A DNA stretch of 64,000 nucleotides from Escherichia coli (GCF_003018255.1 NZ_CP027440.1); one strand, 5' to 3'; counted from the first letter of the stretch, positions 46,825 through 60,022 are shown. Numbers and translations are program-made. The notes: a model not told the origin generated them from the sequence alone.

Positions 46825-47100
46825 ATGAAAGTAAACTTAATGATTTTTAGCTTATTTTTATTGGTCTCTATTATGGCATGCAATGTTTTTGCATTTTCCA
46901 TTTCTGGTGGTAGAAGTGAGACGAGCTATAAAGAGACAGAAAAAACGTCAGTGATGACGACAACTCATTCTACAAAACTTCAGCCATCACAGGCGATTTT
47001 GTTTAAGTTGAGAGAAGATGCGCCACCATTAAATCTCACAGAAGACATTACGCCCCCTTTTTCGACAAAGGCGAATTATCTTATTCATCCTGTGCGATAG
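46825..47100 (+). CDS. ypdI: Small lipoprotein YpdI
   Basis: 91 aa ORF with signal peptide and Cys lipobox-like motif (IMAC). Confidence 0.8.
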   Translation: MKVNLMIFSLFLLVSIMACNVFAFSISGGRSETSYKETEKTSVMTTTHSTKLQPSQAILFKLREDAPPLNLTEDITPPFSTKANYLIHPVR

Positions 47101-47176
47101 CGTCTGTCACCTGGCAGGTGAACAATCATGCCTGATGCTGATGTGAACACCTGCCCAAATGAACCATCCTGACCCA

Positions 47177-47419
47177 CTAGCGCCTGCCATACCCCACCAT
47201 AAAGCGAATCATCAAGCCACAAGCCGGGGCAAGAAACATAAATATCCCCGTCACTAGTTCATTACCGCCAGTTAACCACATGGTGAAGTAGTAAATGAGT
47301 GCAGCGAGGATCACCATGCCGAAGAAAGAAGAGACCGCCGAGACCACGTTCAGTACCTGACCGATGTATCCGCTTACGCAGACAATACACAGGGCGAGAA
47401 ACATCCATAAATAAATCAT
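47177..47419 (-). CDS. yfdY: Small inner membrane protein YfdY
   Basis: 80 aa ORF, two predicted TM helices. Confidence 0.8.
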   Translation of the reverse strand: MIYLWMFLALCIVCVSGYIGQVLNVVSAVSSFFGMVILAALIYYFTMWLTGGNELVTGIFMFLAPACGLMIRFMVGYGRR

Positions 47420-47771
47420 AGCTCAACCTCCTGCCGCGCTAAAAAACCTGTAACTTCAGTCACTTTAATAGTAAGACAATCCTTAACCTCTGGCAATTTT
47501 TGCTAAGCATCAATGAAAACAGCACGTTAAATGCAACGCTATTGCGTGCGGAAAATTTTTTACTTTGCACGATTAATAATCAGTAGCTGAAAGCAGTCAG
47601 CCAGTGATAAAGTAGAGCCACCGCATTCATGCTCCTCGTGGTTATGTCCTGACTAGTCTTTACACTCTTTACAGGAACCATTGTCGTACATGATGGCCCA
47701 ACCAATTGAGTGTACCGCTGTCGACATGGAATCTTCTGCGATACAACAATTCGTATCTACAGAAGGTAACT

Positions 47772-48692
47772 ATGTTTCCACAATGCAAATTTTCCCGCGA
47801 GTTTCTACATCCTCGCTACTGGCTCACATGGTTTGGGCTTGGTGTACTCTGGCTTTGGGTACAGCTTCCTTATCCTGTTCTCTGCTTTCTCGGCACGCGT
47901 ATTGGCGCAATGGCGCGACCATTCCTGAAACGGCGTGAATCTATCGCCCGTAAAAACCTGGAACTTTGTTTCCCACAGCATTCTGCGGAAGAACGCGAGA
48001 AGATGATTGCCGAAAACTTTCGTTCACTCGGCATGGCGCTGGTAGAAACCGGCATGGCGTGGTTCTGGCCCGACAGTCGCGTACGTAAATGGTTTGATGT
48101 TGAAGGGTTGGATAACCTTAAACGCGCACAAATGCAAAATCGCGGCGTAATGGTTGTCGGCGTCCATTTTATGTCGCTGGAACTGGGCGGCCGCGTGATG
48201 GGACTGTGCCAACCAATGATGGCTACCTATCGTCCACATAATAATCAGCTGATGGAATGGGTGCAGACCCGTGGGCGCATGCGCTCTAACAAAGCGATGA
48301 TCGGCAGAAATAATCTGCGCGGCATTGTCGGTGCACTGAAGAAAGGTGAAGCGGTATGGTTTGCTCCCGATCAGGATTATGGTCGTAAAGGCAGCTCCTT
48401 CGCGCCGTTCTTTGCGGTGGAAAATGTCGCCACAACCAATGGTACGTATGTCCTTTCACGTCTCTCTGGCGCAGCCATGTTAACCGTAACGATGGTAAGA
48501 AAAGCAGATTACAGCGGATATCGTTTGTACATCACCCCAGAGATGGAAGGCTACCCGGCAGATGAAAATCAAGCCGCTGCCTATATGAACAAGATTATCG
48601 AAAAAGAGATCATGCGCGCACCGGAGCAGTACCTCTGGATCCACCGTCGCTTTAAAACGCGCCCGGTGGGAGAATCGTCGCTATACATTTAA
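47772..48692 (+). CDS. lpxP: Lipid A palmitoleoyltransferase (cold-induced Kdo2-lipid IVA acyltransferase)
   Basis: ORF 47706-48692; start placed at MFPQCKFSREF giving 306 aa; LpxL/LpxM family. Confidence 0.9.
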   Translation: MFPQCKFSREFLHPRYWLTWFGLGVLWLWVQLPYPVLCFLGTRIGAMARPFLKRRESIARKNLELCFPQHSAEEREKMIAENFRSLGMALVETGMAWFWPDSRVRKWFDVEGLDNLKRAQMQNRGVMVVGVHFMSLELGGRVMGLCQPMMATYRPHNNQLMEWVQTRGRMRSNKAMIGRNNLRGIVGALKKGEAVWFAPDQDYGRKGSSFAPFFAVENVATTNGTYVLSRLSGAAMLTVTMVRKADYSGYRLYITPEMEGYPADENQAAAYMNKIIEKEIMRAPEQYLWIHRRFKTRPVGESSLYI

Positions 48693-49046
48693 CAAACTGC
48701 TCTTACTCTTTCCCTCCTCAAATCAGCCATAATAACCTCATGGTTTTTATGGCTTTTTTCTTAAGGTTTTTTCCTTCGCTGAATCTCTAATTATTACCGT
48801 CAGAAATTAAACTGTCGCCGATATGAGACACCTGTAAGTTACTAAAAGTAAATAAGAAAATGCCTCTTGTCTCGTTTCAGTTTTAGGCGTACATTAGCGC
48901 CGTCTGGAGCAGTTTAGCTCAGAATTCTGGGGTGATGCCCACGGTAAAATACAGGACTTTTAAGGTCGTTTTGCCCGGTGTCAACTCACTGTATCAGGTG
49001 TAATGAAGTCATTCAGGCGTAACAGTAATTACGCGGAGAGATGTAA

Positions 49047-49118
49047 AGTGAAATATTTCTTTATGGGCATTTCTTTTATGGTCATCGTTTGGGCCGGTAC
49101 TTTTGCCCTGATGATCTA
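49047..49118 (+). CDS. ypdK: Small membrane protein YpdK (23 aa)
   Basis: GTG-initiated 24-codon frame encoding (M)KYFFMGISFMVIVWAGTFALMI; too short for the ORF track; matches recalled small protein between lpxP and alaC. Confidence 0.5.
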
Positions 49119-49183
49119 AAAGCAAACTGTGCAATGAAAAACAGGAGCCATCTGGCTCCTGTTTGCATTTCTGGCGATGGTGT

Positions 49184-50422
49184 TTATTCCGCGTTTTCGT
49201 GAATATGTTTGCTGCTGGCGGGTAGTAAACCGTCGGCACGGAACATCGCTTTAATTCCACGAATCGCCTGACGAATACGGTCGCGGTTTTCAATCAGTGC
49301 AAAGCGAACATGCGTGTCGCCGTAGTCGCCAAAGCCAATCCCCGGCGAGACACAGACCTTCGCTTCGTTCAGCAGCTTCTTGGCAAATTCCAGCGAGCCC
49401 ATGGCAGCATACGGTTCCGGGATTTTCGCCCAGACATACATCGAAGCCTTCGGCATTTCGACCATCCAGCCCGCTTCATGCAGCCCTTTTACCAGTACAT
49501 CACGGCGGCGTTTGTACTGTTCAGCAATGTCGCGCACGCACTGTTGATCGCCCTCCAGCGCCGCAATCGCTGCCACCTGCAACGGCGTAAAGGTGCCGTA
49601 ATCGTGATAGCTTTTAATACGTGCCAGCGCGCTGACCAGCGTTTTGTTGCCAACCATAAAGCCGATACGCCAGCCCGCCATGTTGTAGCTTTTCGACAGC
49701 GTAAAGAACTCGACCGCCACATCGCGTGCACCTGGCACCTGCATGATTGACGGCGCTTTCCAGCCATCGTAGACGATATCGGCATAGGCCAGGTCATGGA
49801 CCACCAGCACATCGTAGCGTTTCGCCAGCGCCACAACCTTTTCGAAGAACTCCAGCTCCACGCATTGCGCGGTTGGATTCGACGGGAAGCCGAGGATCAT
49901 CATCTTCGGTTTCGGATAACTTTCGCGAATGGCGCGTTCCAGTTCGTTGAAGAAATCGACACCTTCCACCAGCGGCACTGAGCGTACCTGCGCCCCGGCA
50001 ATCACCGCGCCGTAAATATGAATCGGGTAGCTTGGATTAGGCACCAGTACAGTGTCACCATGATCCAGCGTCGCCAGCATCAGATGCGCCAGTCCCTCTT
50101 TCGAACCAATAGTGACGATGGCTTCTGATTCCGGGTCGATCTCAATGCCGTAGCGATCCTGATACCAGCGGGAAATGGCGCGACGTAACCGCGGAATGCC
50201 GCGTGACGTGGAGTAACCATGCGTGTCCGGGCGCTGGGCCACCGTACATAATTTTTCGACGATATGCGGCGGAGTCGCACCGTCCGGGTTACCCATACTG
50301 AAATCAATAATATCTTCGCCGCGCCGACGCGCAGCCATTTTCAGTTCAGCGGTAATGTTAAAAACATAGGGCGGGAGACGATCAATGCGCGTAAAGCGAC
50401 GTTCAGGGCGAGTGTCAGCCAT
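49184..50422 (-). CDS. alaC: Glutamate-pyruvate aminotransferase AlaC (YfdZ)
   Basis: 412 aa ORF, class I aminotransferase with PLP-lysine region. Confidence 0.93.
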
Positions 50423-50798
50423 AATTTCCTCAGATTAACGTTAGCGCCCGGACCGTCCGAGCGACGCTGCCACGATGGTGGCTGTTTTGAAAATAGCCTG
50501 ATTAATTTCTGTCTGTCCAGCGTTTTAGAACATTTTTATTAATGACGTTAAATGAGGAACTCTGCTTTAAAAACAGGAAATTTATCTGCGCTAACAAGAA
50601 AATTACCACCCATTTTATTAACATAATAATTTCAATAAATTTACTAACCAGAAGTGCATTATCAAGAGATGCATTGCTAATACACCATTTATCTATCAAT
50701 CCCCTTTTAAAATTGTGGTTTTTCCTCAAAAACGGCCTGCTGGTCATCAGCCTTCAGGTTACCTATCATAGAGGTTTAATCCTTATTCAGAGTCACCC

Positions 50799-52496
50799 GT
50801 GCACGAAATATTCAACATGCTGCTGGCGGTCTTCGATCGGGCAGCGTTAATGCTTATCTGCCTGTTCTTTCTCATCCGTATCCGTCTGTTTCGCGAACTG
50901 TTGCACAAGTCGGCGCACTCCCCAAAAGAGTTGCTCGCCGTTACCGCCATTTTCTCGCTGTTCGCCCTGTTCAGCACCTGGTCCGGCGTTCCTGTAGAAG
51001 GTTCGCTGGTGAACGTACGTATTATCGCGGTGATGTCAGGCGGGATTCTGTTTGGCCCGTGGGTGGGCATCATTACCGGCGTGATTGCGGGTATTCACCG
51101 TTATTTAATTGATATCGGTGGCGTGACGGCGATCCCCTGCTTTATCACCAGCATTCTGGCGGGTTGTATATCGGGCTGGATCAACCTGAAAATCCCCAAA
51201 GCACAGCGCTGGCGCGTCGGTATTCTCGGCGGCATGTTGTGTGAAACGTTGACCATGATTCTGGTGATTGTCTGGGCACCAACTACCGCATTGGGGATCG
51301 ATATCGTCTCTAAAATCGGGATTCCAATGATCCTCGGCAGCGTCTGTATCGGCTTTATTGTGTTGCTGGTACAAAGTGTTGAGGGCGAAAAAGAGGCCAG
51401 CGCCGCGCGGCAGGCCAAGCTGGCGCTGGATATCGCCAACAAAACGCTGCCGCTGTTTCGCCATGTCAATAGCGAGTCATTACGCAAGGTCTGCGAAATT
51501 ATCCGCGATGACATTCACGCTGACGCGGTGGCAATCACCAATACCGATCATGTGCTGGCCTACGTTGGCGTGGGTGAACATAACTATCAGAATGGCGATG
51601 ACTTCATTAGCCCGACTACCCGCCAGGCGATGAATTATGGAAAAATCATCATTAAAAACAATGATGAAGCCCACCGCACACCAGAGATTCATTCCATGCT
51701 GGTGATCCCATTGTGGGAGAAAGGCGTTGTGACCGGAACGCTGAAAATTTACTACTGCCACGCGCATCAGATAACCTCGTCATTACAGGAAATGGCGGTC
51801 GGTCTGTCACAAATCATCTCCACGCAACTGGAAGTTTCGCGCGCTGAGCAGCTGCGTGAAATGGCAAATAAGGCAGAGCTTCGCGCCCTGCAAAGCAAAA
51901 TTAATCCCCATTTCCTGTTTAACGCTTTGAACGCTATTTCATCGTCAATCCGTCTGAATCCGGATACCGCTCGCCAGCTGATCTTTAATCTGTCGCGTTA
52001 TCTGCGCTATAACATTGAATTAAAAGACGATGAGCAAATCGATATCAAAAAAGAGCTGTATCAAATTAAAGACTATATTGCCATTGAGCAGGCCCGCTTT
52101 GGCGACAAGCTGACGGTTATCTATGATATTGATGAAGAGGTGAATTGCTGCATTCCCAGCCTGCTGATCCAGCCGTTGGTGGAAAACGCCATTGTCCACG
52201 GTATCCAGCCTTGCAAAGGTAAAGGCGTTGTCACCATCAGCGTTGCAGAGTGCGGTAATCGGGTACGCATTGCGGTGCGGGATACCGGGCACGGCATCGA
52301 TCCAAAGGTGATTGAGCGGGTCGAAGCGAACGAAATGCCGGGCAATAAAATTGGCCTGCTGAATGTCCATCATCGCGTGAAGTTATTGTATGGCGAGGGG
52401 CTGCATATCCGCCGCCTGGAACCAGGAACGGAAATTGCGTTTTACATTCCTAACCAACGCACCCCTGTCGCCTCACAGGCTACGTTATTGCTTTGA
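50799..52496 (+). CDS. ypdA: LytS-type sensor histidine kinase YpdA (pyruvate-responsive)
   Basis: 565 aa ORF with 5TM-LYT N-terminus, GAF and His-kinase domains. Confidence 0.93.
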
Positions 52497-58774: not shown

Positions 58775-60022
58775 TTACAGGCTATCGATTAACAATTTGC
58801 CTTTACGGAACATCATCAGACGCAGGAACACCACCATCAGCGCAGTTATGACTGCCCCCAGCGCGATCCCCGCCATGTAGACGCCGAGGTTAGTGACCAG
58901 CGGCCATGCCCAGATAGCGGACTCCGGGAACCATTGCACTGCGCCCAGCCAGACAGCGGCGGTTGAGCCGACAATCGCGCCGACCATATAGGACGGAATG
59001 GCGGTGATGGGGCTTTCCAGCGCAAACGGAATCGCACCCTCACTGATCCCCATAAACGCCAGGAACATGGCGGTTTTACCCTGCGGATAAAGCTGAGCAC
59101 TGAACAGACGTTTGCCGGTTAAACGGCGGTCGATAATGGTCGCCAGACCCAGACCAATCGGCGGAATAACAATAGCGATGGAACGCGCGGTAACCGGTAA
59201 TACGTGGTCAGTGGTAAAGCTGAAGGCAACGAAACCAGCTGCTTTGTTGATCGGGCCACCAAGGTCGATTGCTGTCGCCGCGGCGATCCCCATCGCGTAC
59301 ATTAGCGCACCCTTCTCACCTGCGGCAGTCAGCACGGTACGGATACCGCCGTTGATCCAGCCACCAAAGGGGGTGATGACGTAGTACATCGCCAGCATGA
59401 CAAAAATGGCGGAAAGAATCGGTAGCAAAAATGTGGTTTTGAACGCTAACAGGAAATCCGGTAACTGGATTTTCTGGTTCATCCACTTCACAAGGTAACC
59501 AGCAACGATAGAAATAATCAGGGCACCAATGAAGGTGGACGGCACCGGCGAAGAGGTCGCCCATTGCATCGTGCTGGGATCGAAGTTCAGCAGTTGCGTC
59601 GGCTGGGTAGACATCAACCCACCGATAAAACCAGCCGGGAACGCCAGTTTGCCACCGATAGAGTTCGCCACAAATGCAGCAAACATCGGAATGGCAAAAC
59701 CAAACAACACGCCGCCGAAGGACTGCGACAACCAGGCAAATTTCAGTAAGGAGAGGTCGAAACCGGAGAATTTCCCGCTATTAAGAGCATCCATGATGCC
59801 GATATCAGCAGGAATTTTAAGCCAGCTATAAGCAATCAGCTGGCTGAAAGCGAGGATCACACCGCCCATAATTAAGGTCGGCACCATGCGTGAAATCCCT
59901 GACATCACATGCTGCGGGAGTTCACCCCAGAAGCTGGTTTTAGAGGCCTGCGGATTCTTAACTGCCGCTGCCGCACCGGATGCGCCAGGCACAACGGTTG
60001 CACTGCGTTTTTTAATGGCCAT
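58775..60022 (-). CDS. fryC: PTS fructose-like EIIC component FryC
   Basis: 415 aa polytopic membrane ORF. Confidence 0.9.

Follow-up and report, generated by a model that had tools for sequence, protein, structure and literature searches.

The lpxP-alaC spacer of Escherichia coli very probably comprises the end of the lpxP unit and a whole ypdK transcription unit with a conserved, structured leader

The 491-bp spacer between lpxP and the convergent alaC gene of Escherichia coli (positions 48693-49183 of the window, that is, of the whole 64,000-nt stretch of DNA that was analyzed) is very probably made up of the end of the lpxP unit followed by the whole ypdK unit, with its promoter, leader, gene, and terminator. 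The spacer is unusually rich in non-coding function. Transcribed and conserved as it is, this non-coding region contains neither a separate small RNA (sRNA) nor a long lpxP 3' untranslated region (UTR). Its features are ordinary and essentially already known, being present in public annotation and in high-throughput datasets. No description of the cross-genus conservation of the ypdK leader structure and of the block upstream of the promoter was found in the literature searched, and the conserved leader together with a candidate operator constitutes a modest lead. The features on which this account is built are listed below in window coordinates.

47772-48692, plus strand: lpxP coding sequence, left flank (RefSeq annotation; NCBIfam NF005952, LpxP equivalog)
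48321-48756, minus strand: Tpke70, a historic and unsupported candidate sRNA (published length 436 nt), antisense to the lpxP 3' end
48693-48759, plus strand: lpxP 3' UTR, 67 nt (Term-seq end, hairpin energy, inverted repeat I1)
48725-48754, plus strand: stem AGCCATAA/TTATGGCT of the lpxP intrinsic terminator, with a T-run to 48759 (inverted repeat I1)
48778-48866, plus strand: conserved upstream regulatory block of ypdK, approximately 90 bp
Within 48778-48866, plus strand: block motifs TCGCTnAAT...ATTTATT and GAAATtAAA
48812-48831, plus strand: palindrome CTGTCGccgatatgaGACAC, centered near -80; GTGTCG-N8-CGACAC in Klebsiella
48835-48849, plus strand: GTAAGTnaCTAAAA (GTAAGT box), inside the upstream block
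48850-48861, plus strand: A-rich UP-like tract, inside the upstream block
48867-48902, plus strand: ypdK core promoter, with -35 TTGTCT (48867-48872), 17-nt spacer, -10 TACATT (48890-48895), GC-rich discriminator AGCGCC, and transcription start site (TSS) G at 48902
48902-49047, plus strand: structured ypdK 5' leader, 146 nt (mapped TSS, covariation)
48903-48923, plus strand: leader hairpin HP1, starting at +2
48929-48987, plus strand: leader hairpin HP2, with a conserved base and a variable tip
49017-49034, plus strand: leader hairpin HP3, abutting the Shine-Dalgarno sequence
49035-49040, plus strand: Shine-Dalgarno sequence GGAGAG, directly after HP3
49048-49119, plus strand: ypdK coding sequence, GTG start, 23 aa, TAA stop (RefSeq; NF033437)
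49120-49167, plus strand: ypdK 3' UTR with the bidirectional terminator common to alaC (Term-seq, inverted repeat I2)
49139-49164: stem AAACAGGAGCCA/TGGCTCCTGTTT of the shared terminator, with an A-run upstream and TTTGCATTT downstream
49184-50422, minus strand: alaC coding sequence, right flank, convergent (RefSeq annotation; NCBIfam NF006033)

The spacer, used as a 491-nt query, was 100% identical to the sequence in NZ_CP033635, an E. coli chromosome, and was found in 5422 of 5426 complete genomes at a median of one copy per genome. It differs from the K-12 spacer by nine single-base differences and no indels, so that the K-12 annotation, TSS, and 3' ends transfer directly to the window. The products of the flanking genes scored well above their NCBIfam cut-offs, with 664.9 bits against 517 for LpxP (equivalog NF005952) and 880.6 bits against 647 for AlaC (NF006033). 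Between them, ypdK was the sole annotated gene in the RefSeq annotation of both NZ_CP033635 and K-12 MG1655, lying on the same strand as lpxP at a distance of 355 bp. Its product matched the equivalog model NF033437 with 57.5 bits against a cut-off of 30, over residues 1-23 of 23; Pfam holds no family for YpdK. An earlier note on this DNA had put about 490 bp between lpxP and the convergent alaC, in agreement with the 491 bp and the gene order of RefSeq. It had also named a ypdK-like GTG frame at 49047-49118 as the only coding feature; the identity, the GTG start, the 23-aa length, and the status as sole coding feature all stand, and the coordinates need to be moved up by one base to those of RefSeq (49048-49119). 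Its remark that the 350 bp before ypdK contain no open reading frame (ORF) was true in substance, as the frames present are small (21-38 aa) and all occupy stretches that vary or are missing among relatives. They are a GTG frame at 48932-49003 (23 aa) and a 38-aa version of ypdK beginning at an in-frame ATG at 49003, both rejected as genes on this ground, and a minus-strand frame at 48919-48984 (21 aa). The A of the ATG at 49003 also completes the stop codon of the 48932-49003 frame, and E. coli carries in addition an ATG-TAA start-stop pair at 49041-49046, between the Shine-Dalgarno sequence and the GTG; the pair, the ATG at 49003, and the 48932-49003 frame are not conserved in other genera.

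To compare the locus across the order, AlaC was used to scan one genome per species, which gave 80 Enterobacterales loci. In 74 of these loci, in genera ranging from Escherichia to Pantoea, Erwinia, and Serratia, ypdK and alaC formed a convergent pair and the shared terminator was kept. lpxP was the upstream neighbor only in Escherichia, Citrobacter, Salmonella, Enterobacter, Lelliottia, and Leclercia; elsewhere the upstream neighbor was a transporter or another unrelated gene that changed from genus to genus. In some Citrobacter species, approximately 1 kb separates lpxP from ypdK. ypdK is a real gene, and its ORF is under protein-level selection. The start codon was GTG in all 74 loci and the length was 23 or 24 aa; the entropy by codon position was 0.57, 0.19, and 1.16 bits, which is the substitution pattern of a coding gene; and 42 distinct proteins shared the invariant residues M6, G7, S9, G17, T18, and F19, with W15 nearly invariant. 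When mean identity to the window was calculated by segment over 11 other lpxP-adjacent loci, the values were 31% after the lpxP stop codon, 46% for the lpxP terminator, 73% for the upstream block, 84% for the ypdK core promoter, 37% for the tip of HP2, 88% for the ypdK coding sequence, and 80% for the shared ypdK/alaC terminator. The sequence of the post-stop segment (31% mean identity outside Escherichia) and of the lpxP terminator is conserved only within Escherichia.

Both ends of the spacer carry intrinsic terminators with mapped RNA 3' ends. On the lpxP side, the transcript ends at K-12 position 2496632, the last T of the run following the hairpin, which corresponds to window position 48759 (Term-seq; Adams et al. 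2021, PMC7815308). The hairpin is stable (-15.8 kcal/mol, z -5.73) and is followed by a run of six T, within which the RNA 3' end falls. On the ypdK side, the 3' end classified as "primary" is K-12 position 2497040, or window position 49167 (Term-seq, PMC7815308). The stem there is a perfect 12-bp inverted repeat (-23.1 kcal/mol, z -4.09) with changes on both sides in 4 of its 11 pairs, and this stable GC-rich hairpin is followed by a U-rich tail and the mapped end. Because an A-run stands on the 5' side of the same hairpin, termination of alaC on the other strand is also possible. The relevant plus-strand 3' ends in K-12 are four, namely the two above, one at 2495560 in the lpxP leader, and a Rho-related one at 2496246 inside lpxP (PMC7815308), all obtained under ordinary laboratory growth conditions rather than the cold shock that induces lpxP. 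As a 3' end lies at 48759 and none was found on the plus strand at 48760-49166, the lpxP 3' UTR is 67 nt and not long.

The start of the ypdK transcript has likewise been mapped. A promoter and a start near 48902 were predicted from the sequence before the TSS table was checked, and the table gives the ypdK TSS at 2494797 (U00096.2), which is window position 48902, with 18 reads from one dataset, a 146-nt 5' UTR, and an identical upstream sequence (Kim et al. 2012, PMC3415461). The -10 hexamer ends 7 nt before this position, and the GTG follows 146 nt downstream of it. A tiling-array transcript on the plus strand, 2494795-2494997 (approximately 48900-49102 in the window), showed two-fold UV induction. 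The accessible parts of the Cappable-seq and SMRT-Cappable-seq supplements contained no entry for the ypdK locus. With its two hexamers at 17-nt spacing and the mapped TSS 7 nt downstream, the promoter appears to be of the sigma-70 type. The hexamers are weak, agreeing with the consensus at 8 of 12 positions, and for this reason a consensus scan missed the promoter; owing to its thresholds, the same scan missed both real terminators, and its output was limited to a single promoter-like site on the minus strand and a single chance hairpin within ypdK. The sequence CTTGT, followed after approximately 18 nt by GTACATTAGCGCC, was near-invariant in approximately 58 loci, out to Serratia and whatever the upstream neighbor. 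With its GC-rich discriminator, AGCGCC, the promoter may respond to ppGpp or growth rate.

The approximately 140 bp between the lpxP terminator and the TSS is the ypdK promoter together with its upstream regulatory DNA. The upstream block was kept in most of the genera nearest to Escherichia (e.g., Citrobacter, Salmonella, Klebsiella, and Enterobacter) and was less clear in distant ones, and it accompanied ypdK in genera that do not have lpxP at this position. The palindrome within it may be an operator for a dimeric DNA-binding regulator. Copies of the palindrome and of the extended -10 motif elsewhere in the window occurred at chance frequency only, with one near-match at 59297, inside a coding region. 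Resemblance to the binding sites of OmpR, CpxR, TyrR, LexA, PhoB, EvgA, IHF, sigma-32, sigma-E, and sigma-54 was not convincing, and we claim no regulator. A decamer, TT(T/C)AGGCGTA, occurs twice, at 48882-48891 in the promoter spacer and -10 hexamer and at 49012-49021 in the 5' arm of HP3 (repeat D7). In other genera both sites read ...TTTAGGCGTAC, and the repetition may be due to chance or to an old local duplication.

Because 48902 is the sole mapped plus-strand start in the spacer, reads into ypdK, and is followed by no 3' end before the gene, the RNA from the seemingly empty stretch is the ypdK 5' leader. The earlier note had left room there for an unannotated sRNA or a long 3' UTR of lpxP. 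Neither was borne out, the one since the only plus-strand start within the spacer runs into ypdK, and the other since lpxP transcripts end at an intrinsic terminator 67 nt past the stop codon. The transcript ends and the conservation to which that note pointed for an answer are both present, in the form of Term-seq ends, a mapped TSS, and good conservation. The leader was 105-183 nt long (mostly 145-151 nt) in 54 of 56 loci and approximately 60 nt in the other two.

The leader has a conserved secondary structure that is backed by compensatory changes. An alignment of 32 transcripts gave a consensus with three hairpins (RNAalifold and pair counts), in which changes on both sides were found in seven of nine pairs at the base of HP2 and in five of six pairs of HP3. 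For the structure tested as a whole, whose totals take in the terminator and a helix in the coding region, pairing was found in 96.5% of cells, compared with 38-47% when the partners were slid, and none of 500 shuffles reached the observed pairing values. HP1 was absent from the automatic alignment; among 30 distinct 5' ends, it was predicted almost throughout, with inner stems that differ yet remain complementary (AGC/GCU, GCGUA/UACGC, GGUGA/UCACC, GUACC/GGUGC, and UUGCGU/ACGCAA). The three covarying hairpins were kept across many genera of Enterobacteriaceae, and the core promoter reaches Serratia. Taken singly, the E. coli leader folds only modestly better than its shuffles (z -1.96), and its minimum-energy fold has long-range pairing in place of HP1. 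The E. coli Shine-Dalgarno sequence can pair with codons 3-5; this helix was formable in 90% of cells, showed no covariation, and was not above shuffles. A scan of 47000-51000 against Rfam 15, with E values up to 10, returned chance matches only, the best being plastid and snoRNA models at 17-24 bits against gathering thresholds of 48-75.

From these data, the following sequence of events is very probable. Transcription of lpxP would stop at its strong intrinsic terminator, leaving a 67-nt 3' UTR. The next approximately 140 bp would act as regulatory DNA, comprising the block with its palindromic candidate operator, the A-rich tract, the sigma-70-type promoter, and the GC-rich discriminator. 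Initiation at 48902 would then yield a monocistronic ypdK mRNA of approximately 266 nt, whose 146-nt leader would fold into three hairpins, the first at the 5' terminus, the second long and variable at its tip, and the third short and placed right before a strong Shine-Dalgarno sequence for the invariant GTG. The mRNA would end at 49167, at a two-way terminator that also closes the convergent alaC. Of these elements, the gene identities, the two 3' ends, the TSS, the conservation, and the helices with compensatory changes rest on direct observation. The 5'-terminal hairpin may guard the mRNA against decay that depends on the 5' end, and the leader, the GTG start, and the possible pairing of the Shine-Dalgarno sequence with codons 3-5 may hold translation of the hydrophobic peptide at a low or conditional level.

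Other readings start from the lpxP side. The spacer could be mainly lpxP 3' UTR, or lpxP transcription could read through, with ypdK expressed together with lpxP in the cold; the shared strand and the 355-bp distance allow this, the datasets cover ordinary growth and not low temperature, and Kim et al. assigned to ypdK a weak 5' end (12 reads) at 2494578, window position 48683, inside the 3' end of lpxP (Kim et al. 2012, PMC3415461). We nevertheless regard this as improbable, as the Term-seq end coincides precisely with the T-run of a strong terminator located 67 nt past the stop codon, ypdK starts from a mapped TSS of its own, its promoter and leader are kept in genera where lpxP is not the neighbor, and the lpxP-proximal part of the spacer is poorly conserved. 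The same weak 5' end, together with the 3' end at 48759, would bound a 77-nt RNA (approximately 48683-48759) that might accumulate and act as a 3'-UTR-derived sRNA, since its predicted fold leaves CUCUUACUCUUUCCCUCCUC, CU-rich and within the first approximately 40 nt, single-stranded upstream of the stable terminator hairpin. Such an RNA might also be what was once detected as "Tpke70", which overlaps it in position, is annotated on the opposite strand, and measures approximately 40 nt according to one paper. Its read support is very low, its sequence is conserved only within Escherichia, so that a seed would not be conserved beyond the genus (31% mean identity), and decay fragments protected by terminators are common; we consider such an sRNA quite unlikely. 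As for Tpke70 itself, it is given as 436 nt in a supplement that quotes 399 nt of sequence (PMC6172242). The quoted part aligns to the minus strand at 48756-48358, and 436 nt would reach 48321, so that the candidate lies mostly inside lpxP and overlaps the spacer by its first 64 nt, which include the lpxP terminator hairpin. A genuine minus-strand RNA running from the spacer antisense into the lpxP 3' end would agree with its listing as an sRNA in older annotations, with its use in several screens, and with a minus-strand promoter-like site (GCGACA-17-AATAAT, 48818-48790) that lies inside the conserved ypdK upstream block and points to lpxP; no transcript evidence for this site was found. Against such an RNA, Tpke70 has been dropped from the current MG1655 annotation, it bears no TSS or expression marks in the sRNA table of Kim et al. 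(2012), Term-seq lists no 3' end on the minus strand in lpxP, its published 5' end is the lpxP terminator hairpin and not a mapped start, and an overexpression screen that included it gives no phenotype for it. We therefore consider its existence very improbable, since the plus-strand 48683-48759 fragment could instead account for any small signal formerly detected at this place, and our analysis favors withdrawing Tpke70, a candidate that some sRNA screens continue to include.

The remaining readings concern the RNA that begins at 48902. High conservation, covarying helices, and the lack of a conserved ORF could point to an independent, unannotated plus-strand sRNA within 48760-49047. An independent sRNA gene has its own start and its own 3' end, and the 48902 start has no 3' end of its own: it is the only start, and no 3' end was detected before 49167. 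No terminator-like hairpin with a T-run precedes ypdK, HP3 being followed by the Shine-Dalgarno sequence and not by uridines, and no Rfam family matched, all of which makes such a gene very unlikely. A type I toxin-like or dual-function locus, in which the leader keeps a toxic peptide untranslated until processing or the 266-nt RNA regulates by base pairing, would suit the hydrophobic 23-aa product, the long structured leader, the Shine-Dalgarno sequence that can be paired with codons 3-5, and the two-fold UV induction reported from the tiling array. We disfavor this reading and hold it to be quite unlikely, because no antisense or divergent complementary RNA was found, only repeats of chance length (10-17 nt) being shared by the upstream region and the mRNA; neither Term-seq nor Kim et al. 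(2012) provides evidence of a minus-strand transcript; ypdK is single-copy and syntenic across the whole order, unlike type I toxins; and the Shine-Dalgarno helix shows no covariation. A divergent antitoxin-type RNA, considered separately, was rejected in view of the lack of a meaningful repeat between the upstream block and the mRNA. More speculatively, the leader and the upstream palindrome could form an uncharacterized control module, either a cis-acting RNA switch or a docking site for an sRNA or protein that gates YpdK translation, or part of a dual-function RNA. We think this unlikely on the whole, with some chance of being right; if true, it would explain why ypdK has stayed welded to the 3' end of alaC while the upstream content changes.

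The leaders of the neighboring genes also showed features that deserve mention. The mapped TSS of lpxP is 152 nt upstream of its ATG (leader 47620-47771), and an "orphan" Term-seq 3' end is located at 47687, 85 nt upstream of the lpxP ORF. Together, these two ends point to a leader RNA of approximately 68 nt, or to premature termination, in the cold-induced lpxP gene. A genomic SELEX study of minor sigma factors places a peak in the yfdY/lpxP intergenic region (approximately 47420-47771), under a heading that indicates the heat-shock sigma factor (PMC5493296). On the minus strand, alaC has a strong TSS (1217 reads) with a 61-nt leader (50423-50483), and a very abundant Term-seq 3' end is present within this leader at 50434, 12 nt upstream of the ATG. 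This end suggests a leader-derived RNA of approximately 50 nt, or a strong pause or attenuation site.

On the preferred reading, in which the spacer holds the end of the lpxP unit and the whole ypdK unit, the lesson for annotation is that a long gap beside a tiny gene does not necessarily conceal a further one. In this spacer, a terminator, a promoter and its upstream control DNA, and a long leader together explain the whole gap. Among small-protein genes of unknown function, ypdK is one of the most widely conserved in enteric bacteria, and its GTG start, structured leader, and candidate operator offer handles on when the gene is expressed and what YpdK does.

Compared with known systems, the gene examined here is the same as ypdK (b4680) of E. 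coli K-12, with nothing substantive to distinguish them. Tpke70, which came from early computational screens, lies on the opposite strand and outside the 290 bp upstream of ypdK. The type I toxin mRNAs of tisB, shoB, zorO, and dinQ carry a very small hydrophobic ORF after a long structured leader, and ypdK resembles them in this arrangement and in its weak UV induction; it differs from them in having no antitoxin RNA or complementary repeat and in being single-copy, order-wide, and syntenic. As in other bidirectional terminators between convergent genes, a perfect 12-bp GC-rich stem lies between an A-run and a T-rich run; in this case, it stands 20 nt past the end of ypdK and 19 nt past that of alaC, the ypdK 3' end being mapped and the alaC-side end deduced from the A-run. 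Finally, 5'-terminal stem-loops of the ompA-leader type stabilize mRNAs, and ypdK likewise has a hairpin 1-2 nt from its mapped 5' end, conserved in position and covarying in its inner stem, which by analogy may play a stabilizing role in the ypdK mRNA.
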